64,000 bases of DNA, taken from assembly GCA_964562095.1 (NCBI GenBank), contig CAZLSH010000002.1, positions 9,597 to 73,596 on the forward strand, given 5' to 3'. The notes below the pieces were generated by a model. It did no database searches and was not told where the DNA came from. It saw only the letters and a list, made by a program, of their open reading frames with translations. Position 1 is the stretch's first letter. Every line of letters begins with the position of its first letter. Positions 6,641-44,536 of this stretch are shown one piece after another. The translations under genes and the position numbers were made by a program. The stretch is from an uncultured Clostridia bacterium. Lineage in GTDB: Bacteria > Acidobacteriota > Aminicenantia > UBA2199.

Positions 6641-6659
6641 GGCGATGGCTGAGTCGGAA

Positions 6660-6687
6660 AAGGGCAGCGCGCGGCGGCCCTTTTTTA
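6660..6687 (+). terminator. GC-rich hairpin plus T6, candidate intrinsic terminator after hydA
   Basis: GGGCAGCGCGCGGCGGCCC followed by TTTTTT, 20 nt after the hydA stop. Confidence 0.4.
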
Positions 6688-6691
6688 GCGA

Positions 6692-6720
6692 TGGCAAAAC
6701 CATGCCGGCTGGGTTATAAT
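6692..6720 (+). promoter_or_regulatory. Candidate sigma70 promoter for hydFGE (TGGCAA-17 nt-TATAAT)
   Basis: A perfect TATAAT at 6715-6720 with a TGGCAA -35-like hexamer 17 nt upstream, ~50 nt before hydF. Confidence 0.35.
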
Positions 6721-6768
6721 TAAGCGCAATGCGCAGTTTTCACGATCTGTTCACGGGGGAGGGCGTCC

Positions 6769-8016
6769 ATGGCTGAAAAGGCCATGCGCGGCGACCGGCT
6801 GCACATCGCCATCTTCGGCCGGCGCAACGCCGGCAAGTCGTCGCTGATCAACGCTCTGACCGGCCAGCCGGTGGCCATCGTCTCCGACGTGCCCGGGACG
6901 ACCACCGACCCGGTTTTCAAGGCCATCGAGTTCCAGCCCATCGGCCCGGCGGTGCTGATCGACACGGCGGGGATCGACGACCGCGCCGAGGGGCTGGGAG
7001 CGGAGCGGGTCAAGAAGGCGGCCGCCGTCCTGGAAAAGAGCGACCTGGCCCTGCTGGTGGTCGACGCCGCCGCCGATGATTTCGCTCACGAGGACGAGCT
7101 GCTGGAGAAGTTCCGCCGGCGCTCCATCCCGGTCATCGTCGTGGCCAACAAGACCGACCTGGCGCCGGGGCGGGGGAGCGACTGGTTCCGCGACAAGACC
7201 TGCGTGCGCGTCAGCGCCCTGTCCGGAGCCGGCCTGGATGAGCTGCGGCGGCTCATCCTGGAGATCGCCCCCAGCCAATGGGAGCCGCCCTTCCTGCGCG
7301 ACCTGGTCCGCGCCGGGGACGTGGTGGTGCTGGTGGTGCCCATCGACAGCGGCGCCCCCAAGGGGCGGCTGATCATGCCCCAGGTCAAGGCCCTGCGCGA
7401 CGCCCTGGACGGCGGCGCCATGCCGCTGAGCTGCCGCGAGAGCGAGCTGGCCGCGGCCCTCGCCGCCCTGCGCGCCCGCCCGGCGCTGGTGGTGACCGAC
7501 TCGCAGGCTTTCGCGCCGGTCGCCGCCGTCGTCCCCGCCGAGGTTCCGCTGACCTCCTTCTCCATCCTCTCGGCGCGGCAGAAAGGCGACCTGCCCAGCC
7601 TGGTGGAGGGCGTCCTCGCCGTGCCGCGGCTTCGGGCCGGGGACCGGGTGCTGATCGCCGAGTCGTGCTCCCACCACCCGCTGCCGGACGACATCGGCCG
7701 GGTGAAGCTGCCGCGCTGGCTGAACGAGTACGCCGGCGGCGGCCTCAGGATCGAAACCGTCCCCGGCAGCGCCTACCCAGACGACCTGTCGGCCTACCGG
7801 CTGGTGGTGCACTGCGGCGCCTGCACCCTCAACCGCCGCGAGATGCTGCGCCGCCAGGAGCTGCCCGCCCGGGCCGGGGTGGCGATGACCAACTACGGGG
7901 TGTTGATATCGTTCTTGAAGGGCGTCTTCCCGCGGGCGCTGCGGCCCTTCTCCGAGCTGTACGCCCGCTACCAGCATACCGCCTGGCCGCGCGGCCGGGG
8001 GCAAGGAGCGGACTGA
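6769..8016 (+). CDS. hydF: [FeFe]-hydrogenase maturation GTPase HydF
   Basis: N-terminal GTPase P-loop (IAIFGRRNAGKSSLINALTG, DTAG, NKTD) and a C-terminal FeS-scaffold CxH...HCxxC motif (ESCSHH...VVHCGAC). A GGGGGAGGG RBS precedes it. Confidence 0.9.
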   Translation: MAEKAMRGDRLHIAIFGRRNAGKSSLINALTGQPVAIVSDVPGTTTDPVFKAIEFQPIGPAVLIDTAGIDDRAEGLGAERVKKAAAVLEKSDLALLVVDAAADDFAHEDELLEKFRRRSIPVIVVANKTDLAPGRGSDWFRDKTCVRVSALSGAGLDELRRLILEIAPSQWEPPFLRDLVRAGDVVVLVVPIDSGAPKGRLIMPQVKALRDALDGGAMPLSCRESELAAALAALRARPALVVTDSQAFAPVAAVVPAEVPLTSFSILSARQKGDLPSLVEGVLAVPRLRAGDRVLIAESCSHHPLPDDIGRVKLPRWLNEYAGGGLRIETVPGSAYPDDLSAYRLVVHCGACTLNRREMLRRQELPARAGVAMTNYGVLISFLKGVFPRALRPFSELYARYQHTAWPRGRGQGAD

Positions 8017-8017
8017 A

Positions 8018-9400
8018 ATGGATAGCGGATTCATCGACCACGCCAGAATATTCTCCTGCCTGGATAGCGCCCGGCCGCCCGACCGCCGGGAAACAGCCGA
8101 CATCCTGGCCAGGGCGCGGCAGCTCAAGGGGCTCGACTTTGCCGAAGCGGCGCGGCTGCTGCTGCTCGAGGACGAGGAGAGCCTGGCCGAGATCTTCGCC
8201 GCCGCCCTGTTCGCCAAGAGCGAGATCTACGGCAAGCGCCTGGTCCTCTTCGCGCCGCTGTACGTGTCGAACCTGTGCAACAACGAGTGCCTCTACTGCG
8301 CCTTCCGCAAGAGCAACGACCGGATCACGCGCCGCACCCTCCGCCAGGAGGAGATCCGCCGCGAGACCGAGCGGCTGGTCGACCAGGGGCACAAGCGCGT
8401 GCTGCTGGTGTCGGGCGAGGGGCTGGGCGAGGCCGCCCTGGGCTATTCGCTGCAGGCCATCGAGACGATCTACTCGGTCAAGCGCGGCGACGGCGAGATC
8501 CGCCGTGTGAACATCAACGTCGCCGCCCTGCCGGTCGACGCCTACCGCCAGCTGAAGGCGGCCCGCGTCGGCACCTACCAGCTGTTCCAGGAGACCTACC
8601 ATTATGACACCTTTCGCCGCATGCACCCCAGCGGGCCCAAGGCCGACTATCTCTACCACCTGACGGCCATGGACCGCGCCATGCAGGGCGGCATTGACGA
8701 CGTCGGCGTCGGCGTCCTGTTCGGCCTCTACGACTACCGCTTCGAGGTCCTGGCCCTGCTGCAGCACATCCGCCACCTGGAGCAGGCCTTCGGCGTCGGC
8801 TGCCACACCATCTCGCTGCCGCGCATCGAGCCGGCCACCGGCTCCGACCTGTCGCTGCACCCGCCGCACGCCGTGTCCGACGCCGACTTCCGCAAGATCA
8901 TCGCCGTGCTGCGCCTGAGCGTGCCCTACACGGGCATGATCCTCTCCACCCGCGAGAACGCCGCCATGCGCCGCGAGGCCTTCTCGCTGGGCGTCTCGCA
9001 GATCAGCGCCGGCTCGCGCACCAACCCCGGCGGCTACTCCCACGGCGACAGCGGCGAACAGTTCTCCCTGGGCGACCACCGCGACCTGGAGGAGGTCGTC
9101 CGGGACATCGTCGGCCACGGCTACATCCCCTCGTTCTGCACCGGCTGCTACCGCCTGGGCCGCACCGGCGCCGACTTCATGGACCTGGCCAAGCCGGGGC
9201 TGATCAAGCTCTATTGCCTGCCCAACGCCATGACGACGTTCAAGGAGTACCTGGTCCATTACGCGTCCCCGGAGACGCGTGCGTCCGGCGAGGAGCTCAT
9301 CGAGAGCATGATGGCCGACATCCCGGATGCGGAGGTCCGCGGGACGACCCGCAATAACCTGGGGCGGATCGAGGCCGGCGCCAAGGACCTCTACCTGTAG
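8018..9400 (+). CDS. hydG: [FeFe]-hydrogenase maturase HydG (radical-SAM tyrosine lyase)
   Basis: Radical-SAM CNNECLYC motif, ThiH-like length of 460 aa, and a C-terminal CX2CX22C auxiliary-cluster motif (CTGC...22 residues...C). An AAGGAG RBS precedes it. Confidence 0.85.
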   Translation: MDSGFIDHARIFSCLDSARPPDRRETADILARARQLKGLDFAEAARLLLLEDEESLAEIFAAALFAKSEIYGKRLVLFAPLYVSNLCNNECLYCAFRKSNDRITRRTLRQEEIRRETERLVDQGHKRVLLVSGEGLGEAALGYSLQAIETIYSVKRGDGEIRRVNINVAALPVDAYRQLKAARVGTYQLFQETYHYDTFRRMHPSGPKADYLYHLTAMDRAMQGGIDDVGVGVLFGLYDYRFEVLALLQHIRHLEQAFGVGCHTISLPRIEPATGSDLSLHPPHAVSDADFRKIIAVLRLSVPYTGMILSTRENAAMRREAFSLGVSQISAGSRTNPGGYSHGDSGEQFSLGDHRDLEEVVRDIVGHGYIPSFCTGCYRLGRTGADFMDLAKPGLIKLYCLPNAMTTFKEYLVHYASPETRASGEELIESMMADIPDAEVRGTTRNNLGRIEAGAKDLYL

Positions 9401-10453
9401 ATGGACCTCCAGGAGCGCCTGCAGCGGCTGTATCGCGAGCCGAACCGCGGCGACCTGATCCATTTTCTTGCCACTCCCGATATGAACGAGGTCGGGTGTT
9501 TGTACGACTTCGCCGACCGCGTGCGTCGCGAGCATGTCGGCGACGCCGTTCACCTGCGGGCCATCGTCGAGTTCTCCAGCTTTTGCCGCAACGACTGCCT
9601 CTACTGCGGCCTGCGCCGCTCCAACCACGCCCGCCGCCGGCTGCGCATGCCTCTGGATGAGATCGTCGCCCAGTGCCGACGGGCGGAGACGCTCGGCTTT
9701 CGCACGGCAGTACTGCAGTCGGGCGAGGACCCGTTCTACGGCCGCGAGGCGATCGCCGGCCTGGTGCGCCGGGTGAAGGCGGAGACCGGCCTGGCCGTCA
9801 CCCTGGCGGTGGGGGAGAGGAGCGAGGAGGAGTACCGGGCCTTCTTCACGGCCGGAGCCGACCGCTACCTGCTCAAGCACGAGACGTCGGACCGCGAGCT
9901 CTACGAGAGGCTCGACCCGGGTCTGAGCCACGAGCGGCGCATCGGCTGCCTGCGGCTGCTGAAGCGCATCGGCTTCCAGACCGGCAGCGGCATCATGGTC
10001 GGCCTGCCGGGACAGAGCCTGGAAAGCATCGCCGACGATATCCTGCTGTTCCGCGACCTGGACCTCGACATGATCGGCTGCGGCCCGTTCATTCCGCACC
10101 CGGCGACGCCACTGGCAGCGGAGCCGCCGGGAAGCGAGGAACTGACCTACCGCGTGCTCGCCCTGGCGCGACTTGTCACCCGCGACACCCACATCCCGGC
10201 CACCACCGCCCTGGCGGTCACGGCCGGCGACGCCGGGCGCGCCAGCGCCCTGTGCCGCGGCGCCAACGTGGTCATGCCCAACATTACCCCCCAGCCCTGG
10301 CGCGGCGCCTACGAAATCTATCCCAGCAAGGGGCGGACGGAGGTCTTTGACCCGTCCCTGCTGGAGCGGCTGCGGCGGACGCTCTGCGAGCTGGGACGTT
10401 TCATTGCCGAGGACGCCGGCGAACGGGTAGGATTCCCCCATTCGATTTCTTGA
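9401..10453 (+). CDS. hydE: [FeFe]-hydrogenase maturase HydE (radical-SAM, biotin-synthase-like)
   Basis: Radical-SAM CRNDCLYC motif, a 350-aa BioB-like fold, and its start overlaps the hydG stop (TAGATG). Confidence 0.85.
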   Translation: MDLQERLQRLYREPNRGDLIHFLATPDMNEVGCLYDFADRVRREHVGDAVHLRAIVEFSSFCRNDCLYCGLRRSNHARRRLRMPLDEIVAQCRRAETLGFRTAVLQSGEDPFYGREAIAGLVRRVKAETGLAVTLAVGERSEEEYRAFFTAGADRYLLKHETSDRELYERLDPGLSHERRIGCLRLLKRIGFQTGSGIMVGLPGQSLESIADDILLFRDLDLDMIGCGPFIPHPATPLAAEPPGSEELTYRVLALARLVTRDTHIPATTALAVTAGDAGRASALCRGANVVMPNITPQPWRGAYEIYPSKGRTEVFDPSLLERLRRTLCELGRFIAEDAGERVGFPHSIS

Positions 10454-10619: not shown

Positions 10620-10695
10620 GAGCCAGTGATTCCCAAGCCGGAAGAAGAAAAATGTGGATTGTAAGTGAAAAAAATCGATGAAAGGAGAAAAAACC

Positions 10696-12048
10696 ATGGC
10701 TGAAAAAATTAGAAACCGCTGGCTGATCGCCATCATGGGGACCGTCCTGCAATTGGCTCTCGGCACAGTGTACGCCTGGAGTTACTTCCAGAAGCCGATC
10801 ATGACTTCTTTTGGCTGGTCCAATGTCACCGTCATGTGGATATTCAGCCTGTCGATCTGCTTCCTGGGTTTGGCCGCCGCCTGGGGCGGGGTGAACCTGG
10901 CGAAGATCGGACCGACCAAGTTGGCGATCACCGGGGCCATACTCTGGGGTTCCGGCTGGTTGATCGGAGCCTTGGCCATGTCCATGCAGAGCGTTATCCT
11001 CCTGTACATCGGCTATGGCGTGATCGGAGGCATCGGGCTCGGACTCGGCTATGTGACCCCGGTGGCCACGGCGGCCAAGTGGTTCCCGGACAAAAAGGGT
11101 TTTATCACCGGCATGGTTGTCATGGGATTCGGACTCGGCGCGCTGATCATGTCCAAGTTGATCGCCCCTGGGCTCATGTCCAGTTTCAACGGCATACTGA
11201 AGGGCATTCCCGCCGAGTCATTCGTTGACGGGAAACTGGTCGACTCATCCACGCAAGCCCTGCTGCAAGGCCAGCTGGTCAACGTTTTCATGTACGCGGG
11301 CATCATCTTGTTCATTATCGCCCTCTCTGCCGCCGTGTTCATGAAAAATCCTCCCGCCGGATACGTGCCGGCCGGGTTCACGCCTCCGGCTAAAGGCGCA
11401 GCCGCCCAGGGTGGTGAAGACAAGCTCACCATCAGAGGCTGCCTGACATCCAGTAAATTTTTCAGGATGTGGCTGATCTTCTTTTTGAATATTGCTGCCG
11501 GCATCATGTTCATCGGGCTGCAATCGCCGATGTTGCAGGATCTTTTGAAAAGGACAGGCTCGGCAATGGATGCCGCTGCCCTGGCAGCCGCCGGCGCCAC
11601 CTTGGTCGCCATCAGCTCCCTGTTCAATGGCATCGGAAGATTTTTCTGGGGTGGCCTCTCCGACAAGATCGGCAGGATCCAGGCGTTTCGCCTGATACTC
11701 GGAACGCAGTTGATCGTGTTTCTGGCGCTGATCGTCGTCAAAAATCCCTGGATATTCGGCATATTGGTATGTTATGTGCTCCTCTGCTACGGCGGCGGAT
11801 TCGGCACCATGCCTTCCTTCATCGGCGATATCTTTACCGCCAAGCTGATGCCGGTCGTGTATGGTACGGTTTTGACCGCCTGGTCGATGGCGGGGATCGT
11901 GGGACCGCAGATCGCTGCTTACATTAAGGACCATTATCAGGCGAATGCCCCGACGTATACTTTTGTAACCGGCGCCGCGCTGCTGGCCATCGGCGTGGCC
12001 ATCGCCTTCACCTTGAACAACCGCTCGCTGGCCGAAGAGCAAAAATAG
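10696..12048 (+). CDS. MFS transporter, oxalate/formate antiporter (OFA) family-like
   Basis: A 12-TM MFS profile with an OFA-like N-terminus (WLIAIMGTVLQLALGTVYAWSYF). An AAAGGAG RBS sits before the second ATG at 10696; the ORF-track start at 10678 includes the RBS. Confidence 0.75.
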   Translation: MAEKIRNRWLIAIMGTVLQLALGTVYAWSYFQKPIMTSFGWSNVTVMWIFSLSICFLGLAAAWGGVNLAKIGPTKLAITGAILWGSGWLIGALAMSMQSVILLYIGYGVIGGIGLGLGYVTPVATAAKWFPDKKGFITGMVVMGFGLGALIMSKLIAPGLMSSFNGILKGIPAESFVDGKLVDSSTQALLQGQLVNVFMYAGIILFIIALSAAVFMKNPPAGYVPAGFTPPAKGAAAQGGEDKLTIRGCLTSSKFFRMWLIFFLNIAAGIMFIGLQSPMLQDLLKRTGSAMDAAALAAAGATLVAISSLFNGIGRFFWGGLSDKIGRIQAFRLILGTQLIVFLALIVVKNPWIFGILVCYVLLCYGGGFGTMPSFIGDIFTAKLMPVVYGTVLTAWSMAGIVGPQIAAYIKDHYQANAPTYTFVTGAALLAIGVAIAFTLNNRSLAEEQK

Positions 12049-12076: not shown

Positions 12077-12118
12077 GCGGATATCCACGCTGGGCGGGGA
12101 TATCCGCTGTTTTTTTTT
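12077..12118 (+). terminator. Rho-independent terminator for the MFS gene
   Basis: A perfect 10-bp stem (GCGGATATCC ... GGATATCCGC) followed by TGTTTTTTTTT. Confidence 0.7.
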
Positions 12119-12177: not shown

Positions 12178-12945
12178 TCAGAAAGTCCTGACGCGTCCCA
12201 GCAGACGCAGCAGTCCGTCCAGGATCGTGTAGGGGTGGGGAGGACAGCCGGGGATATAGAGATCGACGGGAAGCATCTCGTCCACGCCGTGGTGGACGTC
12301 CGCGTGCCCGGCGAACATGCCAGCAGAAATGGCGCAAGCCCCGACGGCAATGACGATCTTCGGTGCCGGCGTGGCGTCATAGGTCTTGCGCAGCGCCAGC
12401 TCCATGTTGGCCGTCACCGGCCCGGTCACCAGCAAGCCGTCGGCGTGGCGCGGAGAGGCGACGAACTGAATGCCAAAGCGGGCCAGATCGAACACGATGG
12501 TATTGAGCACATTGATGTCGGCTTCGCAGGCGTTGCAGCCGCCGGCGCTGACCTGGCGCAGGCGCAGTGAGCGGCGGAACAGCCGCAGACGTTTGGGCTC
12601 CAGTGGCCGGGCATGAAGAAAGCAGGCATCTCCGCTGACGGCCAGGCCGCGTCTTTCGTTGGCGGCGAGGATGTATCCGGCGGTGAATGTGATCACCTGA
12701 TCGGGGCAATGGCGCGCGCAAGCGCCGCAAAAGATGCAGCGGCCCATATCGATGACCGCCGTGCCCTGCGCCTTATGGATTGCCTGTACCGGGCAAACCC
12801 GGATGCAGGCGCTGCAGCCGCTGGCGCATTTCCCGGCGGCGATCTTCGGTAAGCCCAGGAAGCGGTCCGGCAGGATAGCTGCCTGCTTCGGGTATTGCAC
12901 CGTGCGTTGACGCTGGGCGATCCTTGTTTTCAGAACATTCGCCAT
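12178..12945 (-). CDS. Fused 2x[4Fe-4S] ferredoxin (NuoI/HycF-like) and NuoB/HycG-like small subunit of an energy-converting hydrogenase-related complex
   Basis: The N-terminus has two Cys clusters (CASGCSACIRVCP, CIFCGACARHCP). The C-terminus has the NuoB/small-subunit cluster ligands GGCNACE, GACA, GCPP. Confidence 0.8.
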   Translation of the reverse strand: MANVLKTRIAQRQRTVQYPKQAAILPDRFLGLPKIAAGKCASGCSACIRVCPVQAIHKAQGTAVIDMGRCIFCGACARHCPDQVITFTAGYILAANERRGLAVSGDACFLHARPLEPKRLRLFRRSLRLRQVSAGGCNACEADINVLNTIVFDLARFGIQFVASPRHADGLLVTGPVTANMELALRKTYDATPAPKIVIAVGACAISAGMFAGHADVHHGVDEMLPVDLYIPGCPPHPYTILDGLLRLLGRVRTF

Positions 12946-12961: not shown

Positions 12962-14485
12962 TCATAGATCAAATCCACAGTATGACAAGTTGAAGCTCTT
13001 GTTGCAGAGCGGGAAATCGGAGATCGGTTGGCCGCGCATGGCCAGCGCCAGGCCGAACCAGTTGTGGAACGACGGGTCGACGATCTTGTAGCGCTGGAAA
13101 CGGCCGTTCTTGTCGGTGATGGCCACGTGGCAAATTTCTCCCCGCCAGCCTTCGACGAGCGCCACTGTGAGCGCCGAGGCTCTTGCCGGCAGGGGGCCGG
13201 CGGCGATCTCCTTGCCTTTCTGCGCCCTGAACGGCGTGTCCGTTCTGCCCAGATGTTCCAGCAGGAACGCGCAGGATGCCTGGACCTCGCGCCAGCGCAC
13301 ATGCGCTCGGCTGAACACATCGCCTGAATCATGGCTGCAGACCGGAATATGGGCGAAGCGGTAGTACCCATGGGCATGGTCCTGGCGCACGTCTTGAAAG
13401 CAATCGCAGGCGCGCAGCGCCGGGCCGACCAGACCGATGCTCTCCGCCGTTTCCCGCGCCAGCCGGCCTGTGCCCTCGAAACGGGCGAGGATGGAGGCGT
13501 CCTCCCAAAGAAGGCCGGTCGCGCCCAAGAAATCAGAGGTTGAGCCTTGAAGCTTTTTGGACAGCTCCGCTTTTCTTTTCTCATCCAGGGCGAATCCGCA
13601 ACCGCCGGGGACCACCAGGCCGCGGCCGAAGCGGTTGCCGCAGAGCACGGCGGTCATGTTCAGGAAATCACCGCGGATTCTGCCGCAATACGACATGGTG
13701 GGCAGAAAGCCAATGTCCCCGGCCAGCGCGCCCAGATCGCCGACATGGTTGGCGCACCGTTCCAGCTCCAATGCCAATGCCCGCACCATGCCGTCATGGG
13801 CAGAGATCTTGCAGCCGGCCAGTGATTCAACGACCTGGCAATAAGCGCTCATGTGGCCCACCGAGGTGTCGCCGGCGATCACGGCCATCTGAAAGGGCGA
13901 GACGGGGAAGGGCCCGCCACGCAGCGCGTTCTCGATACCGCGGTGCTGGTAGCCCAGTGATATCTCCAGGTGGAGGACCGTCTCCCCGTGGCATTGGAAG
14001 CGGAAGTGCCCCGGCTCGATGATCCCCGCGTGCACGGGGCCGACCGCCACTTCGTGGATCCCTTCGCCACGGACCCGGAAGTAGTCGATCCGGCCGATGG
14101 AGGAAGCCGGCCCTTGCTCCTTTGCCGCCGGCTGGGGAAAACGGACCGCCTTGAGCCAGGGATGGCCCTGGGGCCGCAGCCCGGTCTGCTCGCAGATCTC
14201 CCTTTCGAAGAGATGGACTTGGGGAAAACGGGGGGTCAGGGAGGGGAAATCCTTTTTCCTGGTTATGGTGGAGATGACGGAGAGGGAGCCATTGCGGTCG
14301 TCTGCGGCCACGGCGTACAGTTGGACCTTTTGGGCGTCGAGGCGGTCGCCGAAATAGGCGCAGACCCGGAATCCCCGGTCCAGCAGTACGGCCAGAGACT
14401 CGACGAAGTCGTCCAAGTCAAGGACGGGAACATCGGCCAATGGGATGACCTGGCCGTTGCCTATGCGAGGGATGGCGGCGCTCAT
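12962..14485 (-). CDS. NuoC-NuoD fused large subunit, group 4 hydrogenase / Ehr-like, lacking the NiFe-ligating cysteine motifs
   Basis: Only the 3-prime 1.5 kb of the listed 892-aa ORF looks protein-like; the real start is MSAAIPRIG at 14485. It has the NuoD/HycE signature GPVHAGIIEPGHFRF...HRGIE. Where HycE has RVCGICGFAH this protein reads VIAGDTSVGHMS, and its C-terminus is DFPLCNKSFNLSYCGFDL instead of DPCxxCxxR. It overlaps the next gene by 4 nt. Confidence 0.8.
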   Translation of the reverse strand: MSAAIPRIGNGQVIPLADVPVLDLDDFVESLAVLLDRGFRVCAYFGDRLDAQKVQLYAVAADDRNGSLSVISTITRKKDFPSLTPRFPQVHLFEREICEQTGLRPQGHPWLKAVRFPQPAAKEQGPASSIGRIDYFRVRGEGIHEVAVGPVHAGIIEPGHFRFQCHGETVLHLEISLGYQHRGIENALRGGPFPVSPFQMAVIAGDTSVGHMSAYCQVVESLAGCKISAHDGMVRALALELERCANHVGDLGALAGDIGFLPTMSYCGRIRGDFLNMTAVLCGNRFGRGLVVPGGCGFALDEKRKAELSKKLQGSTSDFLGATGLLWEDASILARFEGTGRLARETAESIGLVGPALRACDCFQDVRQDHAHGYYRFAHIPVCSHDSGDVFSRAHVRWREVQASCAFLLEHLGRTDTPFRAQKGKEIAAGPLPARASALTVALVEGWRGEICHVAITDKNGRFQRYKIVDPSFHNWFGLALAMRGQPISDFPLCNKSFNLSYCGFDL

Positions 14486-15969
14486 CGGCCGATCCCCCTT
14501 TCCACCGCGGCTGCCGCGTCCCGCAAAAAGGCGGAGAAAGGCTCGGGAAGCCATATTCCCAGCAGCAGCAGCGCTGCCGCCAGGCCCAGGACGATCAGGA
14601 TATCGGGCAACCGGGGCTTTGCGGCCGCAGGCAGCGCGCCGCTGCCGCCGCCGAAGGAAACAGCCATGGCGTTTTTCAGGGCGCCGAAAAAAACGGCCAG
14701 GACGCAGAAAAGGAATAGCCCGACGATAAAGTATCGCCCCTGGAAAAAGGCCTGCTTGACGATCAGGAATTCGCTGAGGAAGATCGAGAAGGGCGCCACG
14801 CCGATCAACGCCAGGATGGATAGGAAGAAAGCCCCGCCCCAGAGAGGCACGCGCTCGCCGGCGGCGCTGATCCGCCGCATGTCTCTGGTCCCGTAATGGA
14901 CGCTGATATGGCCGGCGGCAAAGAAGGAGAGGACCTTGGCGAACGAATGGTTGGCGGTGTGCAGCAGGGCCGCGAACGTGCCGATGCCGCCGAGTCCCAG
15001 TCCCACCGCGATGATGCCCATGTGCTCCACGCTGCAGTAGGCCAGGAAGCGCTTGATGTCGCTCTGGATGGGAATGAAGATCGCCGCGAAAAGCAGCGAG
15101 GTGAACCCGAAGATCAGGATGATGGCCTGGGCCTGCCCGTCCCCGCCCATCGCTGCCTTGGCGATCGGCAGGTAGCGCATGATGCAAAAGAGGGCGCAGT
15201 TGAGCATCACCCCGGAAAACGCCGCCGAAACCGGCGTCGGGGCCTGGCTGTGGGCGTCGGGGAGCCAGGTGTGCATGGGCGCCAGCCCGGCCTTGGTCCC
15301 GAAGCCGACCACGATGAAAACGAAGGCGAAGAGCATGAGTTGCGGGTCGATCTGGTCCGCATGCCGCGCCAGCCGGCTGAAAAGGAACTGCGAGCCCGCC
15401 CCGGGCAGGTTCTTGGCCGCGGCGACCGTCAGGATCGTGCCCATGAAGGCGAAGACGATCCCCACCGAGCAAATGAGCAGGTACTTCCACATGGCTTCGA
15501 TGGAAAGGGGGTCGGTTTCGGAAATGATCAGGAACGCCGAGACCAGGGTCGTCGCTTCCAGGGCCACCCACATGACCCCGATGTGGTTGGACATCAGGAC
15601 CAGGAGCAGCATGGCCTGGAACGCCTGCCAGAGCATGCAATAGCGCTTGACGGCGGTGCGGCCCAGGTTGCCGGCCTGGATCCCGTGCTTGAAGTAACCG
15701 CCGGCATAGATGGCGGTGATCAGGAAGACCAGGTCGACGAGAACGATATGGTACAGGGAGAGGGAATCGATGAGCAGGATGCGGCCGTAATGGGAATAGG
15801 CCCCGCCGGCGAAAAAACGCAAGGCCAGCGGCAGCGTCAGGACGGCTGTGGCCAGGGAGGTGACGACCGGGATGCGCAGGGTGCGTCCGGCGTCGGTCAT
15901 GGGCAGGCAGGCCAGGATGCCGCCGCCGAGAACGGCGAAAATGACGGGAATGAAAATCGCCGTCGCCAT
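14482..15969 (-). CDS. NuoM/NuoN/HyfF/MnhD-like proton-translocating antiporter subunit
   Basis: GLAPMHTWLPDAH and AYCSVEHMG motifs in a ~14-TM, 495-aa protein. Confidence 0.8.
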   Translation of the reverse strand: MATAIFIPVIFAVLGGGILACLPMTDAGRTLRIPVVTSLATAVLTLPLALRFFAGGAYSHYGRILLIDSLSLYHIVLVDLVFLITAIYAGGYFKHGIQAGNLGRTAVKRYCMLWQAFQAMLLLVLMSNHIGVMWVALEATTLVSAFLIISETDPLSIEAMWKYLLICSVGIVFAFMGTILTVAAAKNLPGAGSQFLFSRLARHADQIDPQLMLFAFVFIVVGFGTKAGLAPMHTWLPDAHSQAPTPVSAAFSGVMLNCALFCIMRYLPIAKAAMGGDGQAQAIILIFGFTSLLFAAIFIPIQSDIKRFLAYCSVEHMGIIAVGLGLGGIGTFAALLHTANHSFAKVLSFFAAGHISVHYGTRDMRRISAAGERVPLWGGAFFLSILALIGVAPFSIFLSEFLIVKQAFFQGRYFIVGLFLFCVLAVFFGALKNAMAVSFGGGSGALPAAAKPRLPDILIVLGLAAALLLLGIWLPEPFSAFLRDAAAAVERGIGR

Positions 15970-16616
15970 CAGCGCCTCAACTTTTCCAGCGAGCCGCTGC
16001 TGATGGTGTCGTACTCGCTATGGATGTGATGGACGACCATAACCATGATGAACACGCCGACGAGCATGTCCAGCAGAATGCCCATTTCCACGAAAAGGGG
16101 CTGGAAGGCGGCGATGGAGAGGCCCAGGATGAAGCCTGAGTTTTCGAAAACCAGGTAACCGATGATTTGACTGACCACGTTGCGCCGCGCCACGATGAGA
16201 AAAAGTCCGATAAACGCCGTGGCGATGGCGGTGGAGGCGTGAAACGGCGATATCGTGACCGAGTAGAACGGAATTTTTCTGAGCACATAGAAGGCGAAGG
16301 CCGAGGTCAGGATGCCGAAGGTGACCGACAGCGAATAGCCGATGGCGGGGTCGACCTCGCGCACGACGCGCACGTCCCGGATCGCCCGGCGTAGATAGCG
16401 GGGGATCAGAATGCCCTTGATGGCCATGCTTAAGAAGACGAGGAGGAACATGTGGATCCTCTCCGCCGGATTCGGCAGGAGCAGGGGCAGAACGCTTAAA
16501 AGCAGCCCCTGGGCAGCGACGCCGCGGATCATGCCCGAAAGCCGGCTCGTAGCCAGCATATACAGGTTGCAAACGACGATGGCGAGTGAAACCCAGGCCA
16601 GCGGATTGAATCTCAT
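15969..16616 (-). CDS. HyfE-like small membrane subunit (hydrogenase-4 component E family)
   Basis: A 215-aa polytopic membrane protein with a HyfE-like profile, positioned between the NuoH-like and NuoM/N-like genes. Confidence 0.65.
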   Translation of the reverse strand: MRFNPLAWVSLAIVVCNLYMLATSRLSGMIRGVAAQGLLLSVLPLLLPNPAERIHMFLLVFLSMAIKGILIPRYLRRAIRDVRVVREVDPAIGYSLSVTFGILTSAFAFYVLRKIPFYSVTISPFHASTAIATAFIGLFLIVARRNVVSQIIGYLVFENSGFILGLSIAAFQPLFVEMGILLDMLVGVFIMVMVVHHIHSEYDTISSGSLEKLRR

Positions 16617-16623
16617 TTTCCGC

Positions 16624-17541
16624 TTACCATGCGAGTGCCCCGGTCACGCTGATAAAAAAACCCAGCAAGGCGATCACGCCCGCGGCGAATAGAAGTTGCG
16701 GCACCTTGAGCAGCGGCACCCGGGCCATGGACGACTCCACAACGCCCACGATGGCGGCGATCAGGGCGATCAGCGCCACGAGCACGATCGTCTGCAGCAG
16801 TGGCGACGAGCTCGAAACAGGGAGCAAAATCCTCGCCAAAACCAGCGAAAACAACCAGAGCTTGATCGCCGCCGCATATTCCAGCAGCGCCAGCCCCGGG
16901 CCGCTGTTATCCAGGATCATCGCTTCGTGGATCATGGTGAGTTCCAGGTGGGTGTTCGGGTCATCGAATGGGATACGGGCATTCTCGGCCATGAGAACGA
17001 TGAACAGCGGCAGCGCCGAGAGCAGCACGGTGATGGAATCGGCGACCATGGGGGCGGAGAGAGCCGTCATGATGCTGCCGGTGCCATTCGCACGCATGAC
17101 GTTGAGCAGGCAGACGAACAGGACGGGCTCGGCGAGCGCCGAAAAAAAAGCCTCGCGGCTCGCCCCCATGCCGGCGAATGACGAACCGGTGTCGAGGGCG
17201 GACAGGATCAGGAAGAATCTTGCCAGGCCCAGGAGATACAGCAACATGACCACATCGCCGGTGAACAGCGGCTTCGGGCTCAGCATCAGGAAGGGCACAA
17301 AACAGGTTGCGGCGAGGGTAGCGGTGAAGATCACGACCGGGGCCATGCGGAACAGCCACGAGGTCGTCATGCTGGTTACGGTGCCTTTGTGCAGGAGGCG
17401 AAAAAGATCATAGTAGGCTTGGAGGAGCGGTTGCCCTTTGCGCCCGGCGAACATGGCCTTGACGCGGTTGATGATCCCGGCCAGCAGCGGCGAGAAGGCC
17501 AGTGCTGCGGCCGGGGAGATGAGAAAGGCGCTGATGTTCAT
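16624..17541 (-). CDS. NuoH/HycD/HyfC-like membrane subunit
   Basis: The N-terminal motif RVKAMFAGRKGQPLLQ matches the HycD/NuoH family; the protein is 305 aa with 8 TM. Confidence 0.8.
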   Translation of the reverse strand: MNISAFLISPAAALAFSPLLAGIINRVKAMFAGRKGQPLLQAYYDLFRLLHKGTVTSMTTSWLFRMAPVVIFTATLAATCFVPFLMLSPKPLFTGDVVMLLYLLGLARFFLILSALDTGSSFAGMGASREAFFSALAEPVLFVCLLNVMRANGTGSIMTALSAPMVADSITVLLSALPLFIVLMAENARIPFDDPNTHLELTMIHEAMILDNSGPGLALLEYAAAIKLWLFSLVLARILLPVSSSSPLLQTIVLVALIALIAAIVGVVESSMARVPLLKVPQLLFAAGVIALLGFFISVTGALAW

Positions 17542-19523
17542 AGGAAGAACTTCCAGATGATCAGACAGAAAACGGTCAGTGCGATGTAGAACACATATTG
17601 CCCGGTTTTGCCACTCTGGAACCAGCGCAGCAATGAGAACGCCCTGTCCAGGGATCTGACCAGTGGAGAGAACAGCCGGGTCAGGAACCAGTCATCCACG
17701 CCCGCATGAAACGACCAGTTGTCCATGGGGAATAATTCCCTGTCGTTCCGGAGCTGCTCGTGCCCATGCAGGGGAAGCTGGAAATGCTTGATGAGCGGAG
17801 CGGCGAAAGAAGAGGCCGTGTATTGCATGGTCGGGCCGGGTTGGCTGTAGCCGCAATCCCACGTGACGGCGCCCGTCACGGCCCGCCCCCTGCGCTTCAT
17901 GATCGAGCGCCAGGCGTAGAAAAAAACGGCGGCCAATGCCAGCAGGCCCAGGATGATGCTCACGGTCAAAGTCAATGGGAAGAGCGTCCGGGCCGCCGCA
18001 TCGGCAGGGCCGAAAAACATCAGGACCGGTCGAATTAAAACCGGGAGCATGGCCATACTGAATAGGCCTATGAGCAGGCATAGCGCGGCCAGCAAGCCCA
18101 TGGACCAGAGCATGGGAGCCGGAGCTTCTGTTGGCGTGAGCTCTGTTTTCGTGCGTGCTTCACCAAGGAAAACGATACCGAAAACTTTCGTGAAACAGGC
18201 CACGGCCAGACCGCCGATGAGCGCCAGCGAGATGATGACGGCAAGGCTCAGCAGCGCCAGCAGCGGCTGCGGAGCGTGCACGGCGCCGCTGATGCCCGCG
18301 ACGTAGATGAACAACTCGCTGATAAAGCCATTGAAGAACGGCAGGCCGCAGATGGCGATGGCGCCGACAAAGAACAAACTGCCTGTGCGGGGCATTTTTT
18401 TCAACAGGCCGCCCAGGCGATCGATCTCGCCGCTCCCCGTTTGCCGGATCACCGCCCCGGCCCCAAGGAACAGCAGTCCCTTGAATAGGGCATGATTTAC
18501 GACATGCAGCAGCCCGCCTGCGAAACCGAAAAGCGCGATGGTGCTGGAGCCGAAGGCCACCCCGGTCATGCCGATGCCGATGCCCAGGAGAATGATGCCG
18601 ATATTTTCAACGCTGTGATAGGCAAGCAATCTCTTGATATCATGCTGCCCGAGGGCGAAGAGCACTCCCAGTATGCCGGATATCGCTCCCAGGGCAATCA
18701 GGAGCATGCCCCACCAGGAGTGAAATGGCGCAATGAACGTCAACAACCGCATCAGCCCATATATGCCCATCTTGATCATGATCCCGGACATGAGCGCCGA
18801 TACATGGCTCGGGGCGGCCGGGTGCGCGAGGGGAAGCCAGACATGAAAGGGAATGAACCCCGCTTTCAAGCCGAATGCGATCAGGGCGAGGATGAATACG
18901 GCATCGGCCCTGGCGGCCGAGAAATGAATGCCGGTCCAGGCGTGAAAATCGAACGAGCCGGCTGACGCGGAAAGCTGGAGAAAAAGGACCAGCAGAAATG
19001 CCGTGCCTACGTGCGCCGTGACGAAATAGGTCCATCCGGCCCGGATCGCATCGGGGTTCTTTTTGTCGTTGATGACCAGGAAAAACGATGAGAGCGACAT
19101 GATCTCCCAGGCCAGGATGAACAGGACAGCGTTCCTGGCCAGGAGCACCATGACCATCCCGGAAACCAGCAAGCTGAAATAGAACCAATGGGAGCGTCCG
19201 GCGGGATGACTCCCGAAGTAACGCGTCCCGTAAAGTGAACTGGCTGCCGCCAGGATCAGCAGCGGGATCATGAATATGGCGCTCAAGGGGTCGATGCCCG
19301 CCCGCAGGCTGGCGAAGGGCAGTTGCCAGTTCAGCCAGCTGGAAATGATATTCGCGTCAATGCGGCGGAAAATCCAGAAAAGATATGCCAGGGTGATGAG
19401 GCTGCCGGCGGAAACAATGATGGCGGTCAGGTCCTTTAGCCGGGAGCCATGCTTGAACGGGTACAGGCTGAATACGCCAGCTGCACTGACAACGAAGACA
19501 TAAAAAATCAAGGGGTTCAGCAT
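17538..19523 (-). CDS. NuoL/HyfB/HycC/MnhA-like antiporter subunit
   Basis: LAWEIMSLSS, FHVWLPLAHPAAPSHVSALMSG and LAYHSVENIG motifs; 661 aa. Confidence 0.85.
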   Translation of the reverse strand: MLNPLIFYVFVVSAAGVFSLYPFKHGSRLKDLTAIIVSAGSLITLAYLFWIFRRIDANIISSWLNWQLPFASLRAGIDPLSAIFMIPLLILAAASSLYGTRYFGSHPAGRSHWFYFSLLVSGMVMVLLARNAVLFILAWEIMSLSSFFLVINDKKNPDAIRAGWTYFVTAHVGTAFLLVLFLQLSASAGSFDFHAWTGIHFSAARADAVFILALIAFGLKAGFIPFHVWLPLAHPAAPSHVSALMSGIMIKMGIYGLMRLLTFIAPFHSWWGMLLIALGAISGILGVLFALGQHDIKRLLAYHSVENIGIILLGIGIGMTGVAFGSSTIALFGFAGGLLHVVNHALFKGLLFLGAGAVIRQTGSGEIDRLGGLLKKMPRTGSLFFVGAIAICGLPFFNGFISELFIYVAGISGAVHAPQPLLALLSLAVIISLALIGGLAVACFTKVFGIVFLGEARTKTELTPTEAPAPMLWSMGLLAALCLLIGLFSMAMLPVLIRPVLMFFGPADAAARTLFPLTLTVSIILGLLALAAVFFYAWRSIMKRRGRAVTGAVTWDCGYSQPGPTMQYTASSFAAPLIKHFQLPLHGHEQLRNDRELFPMDNWSFHAGVDDWFLTRLFSPLVRSLDRAFSLLRWFQSGKTGQYVFYIALTVFCLIIWKFFL

Positions 19524-19530
19524 ACGGCGA

Positions 19531-20286
19531 TCATGGTTTGACGGACTCTTTGCGCAAAGTACTCTCGAAGGCGGCCAGGGTATCGAGGATCAGCTGGCGG
19601 TTGGATGTCCCCTTGAGCACGCAGCGGATGGCGGGCTGGTGCAGGGCATAGCTGAGCCTGGACAGAATGTGAAGGTGGGAACGGACCGTGTGGGTGATGA
19701 TGGTGAAGACGGTATCAACCGCCTTGCTGTCCAGGGCGTTGAAGTCGATGGGCTGTTCAAGAAAACACAGCGCCAGGACCGGTTTTTTCACATGAAATAT
19801 GATCGGGTTTCTGACGTGGGGGATGGCGATGCCGTCGCCGATGGCGGTGGTGCCGAGGTTCTCCCGCGCCAGTAGAGCTCCGATCAGGAATTCCCTGTCC
19901 ACATCGTCGGGGAGGTGCATGATGTTGACGATCGACCGGAGCACGCTCTCCTTGTCCGTGCCGGGGATGCGATAATGGATGCCTCCGGCGTTGAGCGACT
20001 CGGTCAGCGCCGGCATTTCATCGTCGGTCTCGAAAGGTTCATCGAATATCGCGGGGGAGAGCTTTATTTTTCTGGCCGTGGCCCATTCCAGCAATTCCAC
20101 CCTGTTGAAGCGATAACCTTCACCGATCTTGTAGGCTGGGATCTCTTTTTTCGCTATCCAGCGGTAGATTGTTTTATCCGAAACCGCCAACATCTGGGCA
20201 ACTTCCTTTAATCCAATCATCATGGAAAAATTCAACTCCTTGCTTGAGAGTGCGGTTGGTATACTATAGAAAAATGTATAATCCAT
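19531..20286 (-). CDS. Regulator: excisionase/MerR-type HTH fused to a PTS EIIA(Fru/Ntr)-type domain
   Basis: N-terminal HTH_17-like helix (LKEVAQMLAVSDKTIYRWIAKKEIPAYKIGEGYRFNRVELLEWA). The C-terminal PTS_EIIA_2 domain carries the phosphorylatable His motif GIAIPH. It lies 8 nt upstream of the NuoL-like gene on the same strand. The start could instead be the MM pair at 20218-20223. Confidence 0.7.
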   Translation of the reverse strand: MDYTFFYSIPTALSSKELNFSMMIGLKEVAQMLAVSDKTIYRWIAKKEIPAYKIGEGYRFNRVELLEWATARKIKLSPAIFDEPFETDDEMPALTESLNAGGIHYRIPGTDKESVLRSIVNIMHLPDDVDREFLIGALLARENLGTTAIGDGIAIPHVRNPIIFHVKKPVLALCFLEQPIDFNALDSKAVDTVFTIITHTVRSHLHILSRLSYALHQPAIRCVLKGTSNRQLILDTLAAFESTLRKESVKP

Positions 20287-21888: not shown

Positions 21889-21911
21889 GATGCCTTCTCC
21901 TTCATGGTATT

Positions 21912-30147: not shown

Positions 30148-30296
30148 GGCGTTTCCGGCAATCCGGGGGACATCGAGGAGGAGATCGCCTGTCCGCCGGG
30201 GCTGAAGACAATAAGACGTTTCCTCTAGGGGAATGGTTTCCATTCCGCCTCCGAAAAACAACTTTTAATGAAAACATTATAGGATCATTAATAATT

Positions 30297-33134: not shown

Positions 33135-33306
33135 GTCGCCCTCCAACGATGCAGACGACGAATATAGGGAATCGGCAGGTGGTGCCTTTCCGGTGCGGGG
33201 AAGACAATTATTAGACGCGGGAAAGTGGAGAAATGTTTCATGTTTCGGAGTTTCTTACCCATATTGGCGTCATGTTTTCGGAATGATACTCCGGCAGATG
33301 AAAATA

Positions 33307-34707
<1,401 letters not shown>

Positions 34708-36127: not shown

Positions 36128-36248
36128 TGGCGAGTGGTAGTGTTCGTGATAGTGTTAGTGAAGATATTCAAGTCATTTCCATTGAATTTCATGCCATTCA
36201 TGATATATTCTCGCCGGGGAACAGATTTTTATTGATTGGAGTGAAACG

Positions 36249-44523: not shown

Positions 44524-44536
44524 GGGCGGGGGGATG

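Follow-up and report, generated by a model that had tools for sequence, protein, structure and literature searches.

The gene ehrS, located on the minus strand of the window (the whole stretch of DNA that was analysed, 64,000 nucleotides long), encodes in one chain a NuoI/HycF-type 2x[4Fe-4S] ferredoxin domain followed by a NuoB/HycG-type small-subunit domain, and this fused form is the normal, already described architecture of EhrS: the finding is correct but ordinary. We consider it likely that this hyfH/hyfI-like fusion acts as a three-cluster wire leading from a soluble donor to a non-hydrogenase pocket of the large subunit EhrL in an ion-translocating complex. The gene stands last in a conserved module that opens with a regulator and continues through ehrA, B, C, D, L and S:

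19531..20286, minus strand: putative operon regulator with an HTH_17 domain and a PTS EIIA-2 (PtsN-like) domain with a GIAIPH phospho-acceptor motif (Pfam, NCBIfam)
17538..19523, minus strand: ehrA, HyfB/NuoL-like antiporter-like membrane subunit, 661 aa (Pfam Proton_antipo_M; hydrogenase 4 subunit B, E=5.6e-170)
16624..17541, minus strand: ehrB, NuoH/HycD/HyfC-like membrane anchor subunit, 305 aa (Pfam NADHdh, E=3.5e-28)
15969..16616, minus strand: ehrC, HyfE-like membrane subunit, 215 aa (PRK11492 hydrogenase 4 membrane subunit, E=9.6e-22; weak Oxidored_q2)
14482..15969, minus strand: ehrD, HyfF/NuoN-like antiporter-like membrane subunit, 495 aa (Pfam Proton_antipo_M; hydrogenase 4 subunit F models, E=2e-116)
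12962..14485, minus strand: ehrL, NuoC-NuoD-type large subunit, 507 aa (Pfam Complex1_30kDa and Complex1_49kDa)
12178..12945, minus strand: ehrS, fused small subunit (HyfH/HycF/NuoI-like plus HyfI/HycG/NuoB-like), 255 aa (ORF, Pfam, NCBIfam, PDB matches, AF2)

The preliminary description of this DNA had reported one uninterrupted ORF with both domains, to be given up if an internal stop or frameshift came to light. The reading frame is indeed single, on the minus strand, with no internal stops; its ATG lies 16 nt past the stop codon of ehrL and is preceded at about 9 nt by GAGG, and its codon-position GC (0.65/0.50/0.78) is similar to that of the adjoining genes. An assembly or sequencing artefact, in which a frameshift or a lost stop codon joined a NuoI-like and a NuoB-like gene, has one circumstance in its favour: a few relatives (L126, L127, L156) are split, with the NuoI-like gene directly after the large-subunit gene and overlapping the NuoB-like gene by 4 nt (an order matching hyfG-H-I), so that a single-base error in the linker could interconvert the split and fused forms. 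This explanation is already effectively refuted, and we accord it practically no probability: the identical 255-aa ORF is found on contigs of three independent assemblies (ENA ERZ27298648, Logan ERR1193289 and Logan SRR27370448), the 120 best database proteins and the 80 best genome loci are, all of them, full-length fusions of 248-273 aa, and the frame of the linker is kept over more than 15 phyla. Downstream of ehrS, a search for a convincing minus-strand terminator found none; the hairpin at 12093-12108 scores on the plus strand only and belongs to a convergent transporter gene.

EhrS itself can be divided into four segments, all on the minus strand:

12847..12945: residues 1-33, N-terminal helix (residues 2-10) and long loop (AF2 secondary structure, invariant columns, HycF profile)
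12631..12846: residues 34-105, 2x[4Fe-4S] ferredoxin core (Pfam Fer4_10/Fer4_7/Fer4_9 on residues 34-85)
12580..12630: residues 106-122, variable linker (least conserved columns in alignments A1 and A2)
12181..12579: residues 123-255, NuoB/HycG/MbhJ-type domain (phmmer, Foldseek)

In the N-terminal segment R8, Q11, T15 and P19 are conserved, and this part corresponds to what is the T-x-x-Y-P region in NuoI/HycF. According to the paper on the FHL structure, every structure of the superfamily has an amphipathic helix and a loop at the N-terminus. The linker stands in for the HycB-docking C-terminal extension of HycF together with the N-terminal ~27 residues of HycG. The order of motifs read earlier from the sequence, namely two ferredoxin cysteine clusters and then NuoB-type ligands, is confirmed by all 12 cysteines and by the domain matches: ferredoxin motif 1 is C40-x3-C44-x2-C47-x3-C51-P, motif 2 is C70-x2-C73-x2-C76-x3-C80-P, and the NuoB-type motifs are GGC137-NA-C140-E, GAC204-A and GC234-PP. 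The C-x3-C spacing in the first ferredoxin motif is non-canonical. The proximal [4Fe-4S] ligands C137, C140, C204 and C234 align with the ligands of MbhJ and HycG and are invariant (81/81 sequences), the ferredoxin cysteines are invariant or nearly so (alignments A1 and A3), and 78 of the 81 fused sequences keep all 12 cluster cysteines. Cysteines of both ferredoxin motifs are missing from just one variant, L083, which lacks exactly C40, C44, C47 and C80, together the full ligand set of a single ferredoxin cluster; this pattern recurs in distant representatives. Judged by this conservation in the alignments, the cluster ligands of EhrS are under selection.

Profile searches recovered both halves, with matches much too strong to be due to chance. 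The NuoB-type half matched Oxidored_q6 (E=1.8e-29, residues 137-247; PF01058, 102.5 bits against a cut-off of 27) and exceeded the cut-off of the NCBIfam NuoB subfamily PRK06411 (124.2 bits vs 116), and the Fer4 families matched residues 34-89 with E-values of 1e-7 to 4e-9. The NuoI model TIGR01971 (E=1.2e-16, residues 9-104, 60 bits, cut-off 113) and the HycF-type model PRK12387 (E=7.9e-16, residues 1-105 on profile positions 1-110 of 180, 58 bits, cut-off 204) take in the N-terminus and both motifs but scored under their cut-offs, since EhrS contains nothing that corresponds to the C-terminal part of the family profile and since motif 1 has the C-x3-C spacing. The split relatives confirm that a NuoI-like gene belongs at this place. 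In phmmer searches against the PDB, the NuoB half retrieved MbhJ (5.3e-31) and HycG (7.5e-31), and NdhI and HycF were also matched. The AF2 model of EhrS (pLDDT 88.6, pTM 0.88) superposes by its C-terminal half on MbhJ with an rmsd of 1.6 A and a target-normalised TM of 0.86 in Foldseek; MbhJ is the closest structure by these two measures, and HycG comes first by Foldseek E-value.

The observation that the corresponding parts of Hyc-type systems and complex I are separate chains holds for E. coli Hyc/Hyf, for Mbh and for complex I. In E. coli FHL-1 (PDB 7Z0S/7Z0T), residues 8-98 of EhrS correspond to HycF 8-103 and residues 117-251 to HycG 28-162; HycF and HycG, like HyfH and HyfI of FHL-2, are encoded in the same order after the large-subunit gene but as two polypeptides. 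The FHL structure paper describes a relay from F1 and F2 to G1 with spacings under 14 A, and a 77-residue C-terminal extension of HycF that bears a Cys4 metal site and serves as the docking point for HycB and FdhF. Both this extension and the C-terminal extension of HycG are absent from EhrS, and the partner HycE has a Ni-Fe site, which EhrL lacks. In sequence, the NuoB half of EhrS finds its best match in MbhJ of Pyrococcus furiosus, which is paired with MbhN (6CFW); Mbh and Mbs (6U8Y) differ from the window's complex in having separate subunits, a Mrp-type membrane arm and (in Mbh) a Ni-Fe site. NuoI (N6a/N6b) and NuoB (N2) of complex I have homologous folds and supply the same three clusters at the end of the wire, again as separate subunits, the N2 ligands being a tandem CC in complex I vs CxxC in EhrS (the CC pair of NDUFS7 aligns with A139-C140). 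Three clusters in one small-subunit polypeptide are, moreover, normal for group 1-3 [NiFe]-hydrogenases. Both halves of EhrS have weak matches to FrhG, among models as well as PDB chains; the ferredoxin-like domain of FrhG lies C-terminal to the small-subunit fold, opposite to EhrS, so that we regard it as an independent arrangement, and the partner of FrhG is a real hydrogenase. EhrS has all 12 ligands in one chain; the wire that it implies is already built by the homologous two-subunit systems.

The large subunit decides the kind of complex. When EhrL is aligned to HycE, the four Ni-Fe cysteines (C, C, C, C) become A, T, S and G, with CGIC replaced by AGDT and DPCYSC by NLSYCG; EhrL carries AGDTSVGH and a C-terminal SFNLSYCGFDL where these cysteines would be. 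The same alignment method returned C, C, C, C in large subunits of other loci, which served as positive controls, and the L1 (CxxC...H) and L2 (CxxC) motifs of Group 4 [NiFe] hydrogenases were sought in EhrL and not found. The absence of Ni-Fe ligands from the large subunit identifies the complex as an Ehr, as the preliminary description had assigned it. By Pfam, NCBIfam and synteny, the module has the ehrA-B-C-D-L-S composition with NuoL/N-like, NuoH-like and HyfE-like membrane subunits, and Pfam detects both fusions described for Ehr, NuoI in the NuoB-like gene and NuoC in the NuoD-like gene. Gene order and composition are shared with the Ehr of G. sulfurreducens (ehrA-1, A-2, B, C, D, L, S; GSU0739-45), whose type of large subunit is likewise cysteine-less; several Geobacter-type loci have two EhrA copies vs one in the window. 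Loci of Geobacter, Pelobacter and Geobacteraceae encode fused homologues of 252-253 aa with 56-58% identity to the window's EhrS, and the homologue from Trichlorobacter (Geobacteraceae) is named 'Ech-hydrogenase-like complex small subunit'.

The co-occurrence of the fusion with a cysteine-less large subunit, which had been put forward as a check, is complete in the window's clade: counting 73 loci and the window, 74/74 large subunits adjacent to a fused small subunit are without the Ni-Fe cysteines, and all share EhrL's cysteine-less signature. This signature, AGD[TS][ST]x[GA]H ... SFNLSYCG[HF]DL, is almost invariant over more than 15 phyla and occupies exactly the place of the Ni-Fe site in hydrogenases and of the quinone in complex I. 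A fused small subunit also stands beside large subunits that keep all four Ni-Fe cysteines. Group-4 hydrogenases of Hyf order such as L141, L142 and L149, which are probably members of HydDB group 4f, 'Ehf', encode a fused 240-aa protein with the same 12 cluster cysteines and about 40% identity to the window's protein, in the same A-B-C-D-L-S order and in the same clade of the NuoB-domain tree; their motif 1 has an extra cysteine compared with the window (CxxxCxxCxxCxxxCP), and their large subunits keep RICGxC...ELCYxCxDR with all four Ni-Fe ligands, which EhrL does not. Taken with the reported phylogenetic closeness of group 4f to Ehr, with the hydrogenase-type CxxC ligands in the NuoB half of EhrS and with MbhJ and HycG as best PDB matches of that half, they lend some colour to the idea that EhrS belongs, as small subunit, to a true group 4 (4f/Ehf-like) [NiFe] hydrogenase that evolves H2. 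We hold this to be highly improbable, given A, T, S and G at the Ni-Fe positions in EhrL, the equivalent loss in the other 73 sequences of its clade, and a conserved module without hyp or endopeptidase genes. Respiratory complex I (Nuo) was also considered and rejected: EhrS has CxxC and not CC, and the tyrosine in ...MDYLH... of Nqo4, which we take to be the quinone-binding Tyr87 of complex I, aligns with G205 of EhrL, so that a canonical quinone site is not evident.

At least 586 species genomes encode a full-length fused relative, and they cover more than 15 phyla, among them Fibrobacterota, Cloacimonadota, Acidobacteriota, Chlamydiota, Verrucomicrobiota and Desulfobacterota, with further examples in Planctomycetota, Myxococcota, Spirochaetota, Bacteroidota, Melainabacteria, Omnitrophota and others; the nearest locus in a species-representative genome has 64% identity to the window's EhrS. 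That the fusion might be a recent lineage-specific event, usable as a taxonomic or subtype marker, agrees with the 80/80 best loci of the window's Ehr clade, which are fused and always accompanied by a cysteine-less large subunit. Against it stand the spread over many phyla, the existence of fused forms among relatives that contain Ni-Fe and in further cysteine-less clades, and a neighbour-joining tree of the NuoB domain (~130 columns, without support values and hence indicative only) that places all fused forms in one clade, with HycG and MbhJ outside. On this rough tree the fusion seems to be older than the loss of the Ni-Fe site. The fusion had also been described previously: the NuoB-like gene of Ehr is stated to encode a NuoI homologue as well, and the NuoD-like gene to encode NuoC also (PMC6349859, Supplementary Note 4). 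Such proteins are labelled 'Ni,Fe-hydrogenase III small subunit/ferredoxin' by JGI. That Supplementary Note 4 cites its reference 33, presumably Marreiros 2013. A recent origin is thus very hard to sustain, and the suggestion of a lineage marker for this Ehr subtype has to be dropped, the fused state being the family standard.

The fusion by itself carries little weight, being ordinary for Ehr and its Ni-Fe-containing relatives, and does not advance the question of the role of Ehr complexes. It does provide a convenient sequence signature for finding the Hyf-order Ehr/Ehf superclade in genomes, and the natural one-cluster, no-ferredoxin-domain and split variants are ready-made comparisons for the study of Ehr-type complexes.

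A different objection treats the whole Ehr complex, and EhrS with it, as the decaying relic of a hydrogenase that no longer functions. Activity has so far been shown for no Ehr, and the Geobacter Ehr has been called 'nonfunctional' and treated as gathering mutations under relaxed selection (PMC13194489). Strong purifying selection, with the 12 cysteines kept in 78/81 sequences, speaks otherwise, as do the replacement pocket signature in all 74 large subunits and a gene order and dedicated regulator kept across phyla: regulator-ehrA(x1-2)-B-C-D-L-S is retained by practically all of the best 80 loci that are long enough to show it, and of the 57 related loci with room for a homologue of the regulator, 37 have one immediately upstream of ehrA, each keeping G[IV]A[IVL]PH. 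The proteome of G. sulfurreducens, furthermore, contains all Ehr subunits, differentially abundant on formate. A relic is accordingly a quite improbable explanation.

We instead favour a working electron wire. A hyfH-like gene (NuoI/HycF-type ferredoxin) and a hyfI-like gene (NuoB/HycG-type), neighbours in operons of Hyf type, would have fused to give ehrS, an origin favoured by the split relatives with their hyfG-H-I order, and the resulting single chain would bind three [4Fe-4S] clusters with spacings predicted, by homology with HycF-HycG, MbhN-MbhJ and NuoI-NuoB, to be under 14 A, running from a solvent-exposed distal cluster to the proximal cluster against EhrL. As EhrS has no HycF-type docking extension and the module no donor enzyme, the donor is most probably a soluble carrier, for instance ferredoxin. 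Mbh and Mbs are ferredoxin-dependent and are not known to have a docked donor enzyme. Given the absence of Ni-Fe ligands from EhrL, the electrons would not be used for making H2 and may pass to some acceptor in the strictly conserved EhrL pocket. This redox reaction of EhrS and EhrL is presumably coupled to ion translocation via EhrA, B, C and D, and the flow could be reversed, with ferredoxin reduction driven by the proton-motive force. The conserved EhrL pocket, the predicted three-cluster wire and the presence of the PTS-Ntr-like EIIA regulator in most genomes point, more tentatively, to an undescribed reaction of the Ehr complex, which may be an ion pump that is linked to ferredoxin and uses a novel acceptor or cofactor, or else a redox-gated cation transporter; we regard this as possible though rather doubtful. 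As a cation transporter, its expression could be tied to the PEP, nitrogen or K+ status of the cell.

Around the module, a conserved linked gene was sought among [FeFe] hydrogenase, HydE/F/G, MFS transporter, GAPDH-like and PPDK-like genes, and none was found; a dedicated HydA-Ehr or formate-transporter link was rejected, the flanks of the module not being conserved. The ehr operon of the window adjoins an [FeFe]-hydrogenase gene set, an arrangement unseen at the other loci compared. The MFS transporter matches the L-lactate transporter model, not the oxalate/formate equivalog.

The fused small-subunit gene ehrS is the last of six co-directional genes of the Ech-hydrogenase-related (Ehr) operon, which are tightly spaced or overlapping and follow a regulator gene (assignments from Pfam and NCBIfam):

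19531-20286, minus strand: HTH_17 + PTS-EIIA-2 (PtsN-like) regulator gene, ahead of the six ehr genes
17538-19523, minus strand: ehrA, HyfB/NuoL-like
16624-17541, minus strand: ehrB, NuoH-like
15969-16616, minus strand: ehrC, HyfE-like
14482-15969, minus strand: ehrD, HyfF/NuoN-like
12962-14485, minus strand: ehrL, NuoC+NuoD-like large subunit
12178..12945, minus strand: ehrS, fused small subunit (uninterrupted ORF, 255 aa, ATG start)

The upstream gene ends 16 nt before the ehrS ATG, which a GAGG precedes by about 9 nt. EhrS carries two ferredoxin motifs (C40-x3-C44-x2-C47-x3-C51-P and C70-x2-C73-x2-C76-x3-C80-P), followed by NuoB-type cysteines (GGC137-NA-C140-E, GAC204-A and GC234-PP). Pfam places several Fer4 dicluster families on residues 34-89 and Oxidored_q6 on residues 137-247 (E=1.8e-29), and NCBIfam matches residues 9-104 to the NuoI model TIGR01971 (E=1.2e-16), residues 1-105 to positions 1-110 of 180 of the HycF-type model PRK12387 (E=7.9e-16), and the C-terminal half to the NuoB subfamily above its cut-off (PRK06411, 124.2 vs 116 bits). 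On profile comparison, at scores below the cut-offs of both models, the N-terminal half appears to be specifically NuoI/HycF-like and more than a generic ferredoxin. The ORF, the cysteine pattern and both profile libraries thus confirm the preliminary description, in which a single 255-aa ORF combines both ferredoxin clusters with NuoB-type ligands; its interpretation, a single chain of an Ehr complex that holds three clusters, is reasonable. A hidden stop or frameshift separating two genes is ruled out, because three independent assemblies call the same 255-aa protein with no residue changed.

All of the 120 best database matches are 248-273 aa long with query coverage of 93-100%, and nearly all are annotated with both Fer4 and Oxidored_q6 (JGI name 'Ni,Fe-hydrogenase III small subunit/ferredoxin'). 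Searching all 50%-identity representatives exhaustively, we recovered 323 clusters at E<=1e-30, among which full-length fused proteins persist to about 40% identity; a scan of one genome per species gave at least 586 confirmed relatives, the best 80 of which are without exception full-length fused genes. Together with the identical assemblies, these matches exclude the reading of the fusion as an assembly or sequencing artefact. The best 80 come from Fibrobacterota, Cloacimonadota, Acidobacteriota, Chlamydiota, Verrucomicrobiota, Planctomycetota (including Kuenenia), Myxococcota, Binatia, Desulfobacterota (including Geobacter, Pelobacter and Desulfovibrionaceae), Spirochaetota, Bacteroidota, Melainabacteria, Hydrogenedentota, Omnitrophota, Latescibacterota and Riflebacteria. 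UniRef lists the 253-aa homologue of Trichlorobacter ammonificans (Geobacteraceae) as 'Ech-hydrogenase-like complex small subunit'. The gene order of the window equals that of the published ehrABCDLS and Geobacter GSU0739-45 clusters, and regulator-A(x1-2)-B-C-D-L-S is retained in essentially every one of the 80 related loci of adequate length. Since database, genome, synteny and naming results agree, the window protein is, by homology, EhrS, and being fused is the usual state in this family. The primary Ehr papers are those of Coppi in 2005 and Marreiros in 2013; the latter reportedly named Ehr and is presumably reference 33 of the Supplementary Note cited next. The fused EhrS has already been described (Matheus Carnevali et al., Supplementary Note 4, PMC6349859); the fusion is thus the established and previously published arrangement in a family of very wide distribution, and three-cluster small subunits are commonplace in hydrogenases. 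In the Phycisphaerales locus L025, an unfused set of NuoB-, NuoD-, NuoH- and NuoI-like genes (16303-19722, minus strand), probably complex I or another group 4 relative, lies about 6 kb downstream of the ehr operon, which means that a single genome can carry both the fused and the unfused form.

The 12 cysteines are shown by their conservation to be under selection: 78 of the 81 fused sequences retain the full set, and none varies at the four NuoB-type positions (81/81). Among the genome loci, L061 and L079 lack only C40 and C44, and L083 lacks exactly C40, C44, C47 and C80. The latter set (motif-1 Cys1-3 plus motif-2 Cys4) is also lost in the distant representatives P0122, P0124, P0152, P0160 and P0242 of the diverse alignment A2, as well as in the metagenome loci L131, L136 and L145; all of these variants keep the ligands of the other ferredoxin cluster. 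As either cluster of the 2x[4Fe-4S] ferredoxin fold draws three cysteine ligands from one motif and its fourth, the Cys-Pro, from the other, this loss corresponds to precisely one whole cluster, which we take, from Thermus Nqo9, to be the N6a-equivalent distal one. Such losses are good internal evidence that the EhrS motifs would bind their clusters canonically. P0152, P0160 and the further representative P0257 also lack the NuoB-type cysteines; from the ligand sets, the family is predicted to include three-, two- and one-cluster forms. A confident AF2 model of EhrS (pLDDT 88.6, pTM 0.88, high for a two-domain chain) starts at its N-terminus with a helix (residues 2-10) that leads into a long loop, elements that the E. 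coli formate hydrogenlyase (FHL) structure paper describes in HycF and all superfamily members, and its C-terminal half fits MbhJ with an rmsd of 1.6 A. In the alignment, the proximal ligands of EhrS are of the hydrogenase-type CxxC, in contrast to the tandem CC ligands of complex I cluster N2 noted in the FHL paper.

The large subunit bears on whether EhrS serves a true hydrogenase. The best solved relative of EhrL is E. coli HycE (E=1.5e-36), whose RVCGICGFAH and DPCYSC align with VIAGDTSVGH and NLSYCG, respectively, leaving A, T, S and G at the four Ni-Fe cysteine positions. By its aligned residues, EhrL cannot hold Ni-Fe, and a true hydrogenase is excluded for the window; lack of these cysteines is the defining property of Ehr complexes in the literature. 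A near-complete large-subunit gene adjoins the fused gene in 73 of the 80 genome loci, and with the window all 74 large subunits lack all four cysteines, such that the co-occurrence for which the preliminary description suggested a check is complete in this clade. All 74 instead share a strongly conserved signature, AGD[TS][ST]x[GA]H plus C-terminal SFNLSYCG[HF]DL (EhrL residues ~204-211 and 496-507; same positions in L005-L083), including a conserved Cys one residue ahead of the last ligand position. Another large clade, seen in the metagenome loci, has a second cysteine-less signature (S-[IV]-S-G-D-S-[SA]-F-[AS]-H ... NLSYSGTDR). Both pockets seem to have been selected for something other than Ni-Fe and, because the signature is almost invariant, something specific probably happens in that of EhrL. 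EhrL G205 aligns with the Tyr of ...MDYLH... in Nqo4, which we take to be the quinone-binding Tyr87 of complex I.

For some relatives, the hydrogenase reading is correct. Querying metagenomes with more hydrogenase-like fused proteins (NuoB halves 47-53% identical to HycG and MbhJ) yielded 80 loci with the A-B-(C)-D-L-S order of ehr, in which 15 of 66 adjacent large subunits have all four Ni-Fe ligands (R[IA]CGxC...ELCYxCxDR) and 2 more, on truncated genes, have the C-terminal pair. In L141, L142 and L149 (the last from a human-gut metagenome), a Ni-Fe-type large subunit of 501-502 aa precedes a 240-aa fused small subunit with 12 conserved cluster cysteines; sequence inspection, which confirmed these arrangements, also found a Ni-Fe-type large subunit with a fused small subunit in L113 and L137, and L131, L136 and L145 combine a Ni-Fe-type large subunit with a fused small subunit bearing ligands of one ferredoxin cluster only. 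In some close relatives of the fused forms, NuoI-like and NuoB-like genes are separate, with a 4-nt overlap, directly after the large-subunit gene: L126 (7001-7824) and L127 (864-1696) are of the cysteine-less type on two different contigs, and L156 (1471-2327) is of the Ni-Fe type on one contig, where a sequencing error is possible. This order matches E. coli hyfG-hyfH-hyfI (large, NuoI-like, NuoB-like). In L150, L154, L157 and L161, ORF lengths and match coordinates suggest a NuoB domain alone directly after the large-subunit gene. In a rough neighbor-joining tree of NuoB domains, without support values, the fused forms make up one clade with HycG and MbhJ outside, and the split and domain-loss forms nest within it, where they look like re-splitting and domain loss. 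The suggestion that the fusion marks a lineage is contradicted by this tree, the Ni-Fe-type partners and the spread over many phyla. The simplest reading of the order of events is that hyfH- and hyfI-like neighbors fused once, long ago, which would have been followed by loss of the Ni-Fe site in several branches, the window's Ehr clade among them, with occasional re-splitting or domain loss of the fused subunit. In published trees Ehr adjoins group 4f hydrogenases, described as a six-gene ehfA-F complex, a composition that fits a fused small subunit there.

In FHL, clusters F1 and F2 of HycF and G1 of HycG relay electrons to the large subunit with spacings below 14 A; by homology, EhrS would form the same distal-medial-proximal wire in a single chain. 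HycF has 77 more residues with a Cys4 metal site docking HycB and FdhF (FHL structure paper), whereas the HycF-like part of EhrS stops at about residue 105 and, in place of this extension, a short variable linker leads to the first NuoB-fold strand (EhrS residue 117 aligns with HycG residue 28). The conserved module comprises the regulator and the six structural genes alone, and the flanking genes of the related loci include no conserved donor enzyme. Given the absence of both docking extension and donor enzyme, a soluble carrier, most plausibly ferredoxin, would be the likely partner of the distal cluster. Mbh and Ech have a soluble ferredoxin-type partner at this cluster. Ion translocation would presumably be coupled via the antiporter-like subunits. 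A role of Ehr in pH homeostasis has been suggested in the literature, and the related group 4f genes are acid-induced. The proposal that Ehr is a decaying relic (PMC13194489) is contradicted by the conserved gene order, EhrL pocket signature and EhrS cysteines, and by regulated protein expression in Geobacter, where Ehr is more abundant on formate.

In 37 of the 57 related loci with room for it, across many phyla, a regulator homologue (>=35% identity) is encoded no more than 600 nt upstream of ehrA, and all 37 have the phospho-acceptor motif G[IV]A[IVL]PH, which suggests PTS-Ntr-type control of ehr expression; we found no mention of this link in the Ehr-related literature examined. Outside the fusion itself, the strictly conserved EhrL pocket and this EIIA-type regulator are of the greatest interest.

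Several further genes of the window deserve mention. The plus strand at 4832-10453 encodes a 602-aa [FeFe] hydrogenase (819.9 bits vs cut-off 765 for NCBIfam 'NADH-dependent [FeFe] hydrogenase, group A6') followed by the maturases HydF, HydG and HydE, about 1.7 kb from the ehr operon end; this neighborhood is not conserved in the 80 related loci, with a HydE-like gene near ehr in L029 only. Convergent with ehrS is an MFS transporter (10678-12048, plus strand) that exceeds the cut-off of the NCBIfam L-lactate transporter model (SfMCT; 333.7 vs 320), not that of the oxalate/formate antiporter equivalog. The 129-nt gap between it and the ehrS end contains a GC-rich hairpin (12093-12108) and a nine-T run; the search for a terminator of the ehr operon's own on the minus strand gave none. 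About 30 kb from the operon is a gene of the FdhD/NarQ family (formate dehydrogenase sulfurtransferase; 43221-43973, minus strand); a partial screen of window ORFs found no formate dehydrogenase catalytic gene. Pfam gave no match at E<=1e-5 for four fairly long ORFs whose codon-position GC is coding-like (51321-53333 and 44243-45094, plus strand; 36198-37205 and 63006-63782, minus strand); the first (670 aa) has none in NCBIfam either. Adjoining the EIIA-type regulator is an unusual glycolysis-related cluster (20635-26989, minus strand, and 33316-34707, plus strand), in which the gene for a 1357-aa protein lies between two divergent GAPDH-like genes (encoding 417 and 335 aa), with an enolase gene close by. 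The first ~860 residues of this protein are without a Pfam match, and its pyruvate-phosphate-dikinase-like nucleotide-binding domain and PEP-utilizer mobile domain are confined to the last ~450. Two tandem paralogous regulators of 958 and 908 aa (27385-30261 and 30420-33146, minus strand) combine Reg_prop beta-propeller repeats, a Y_Y_Y domain and a C-terminal LuxR/GerE HTH.
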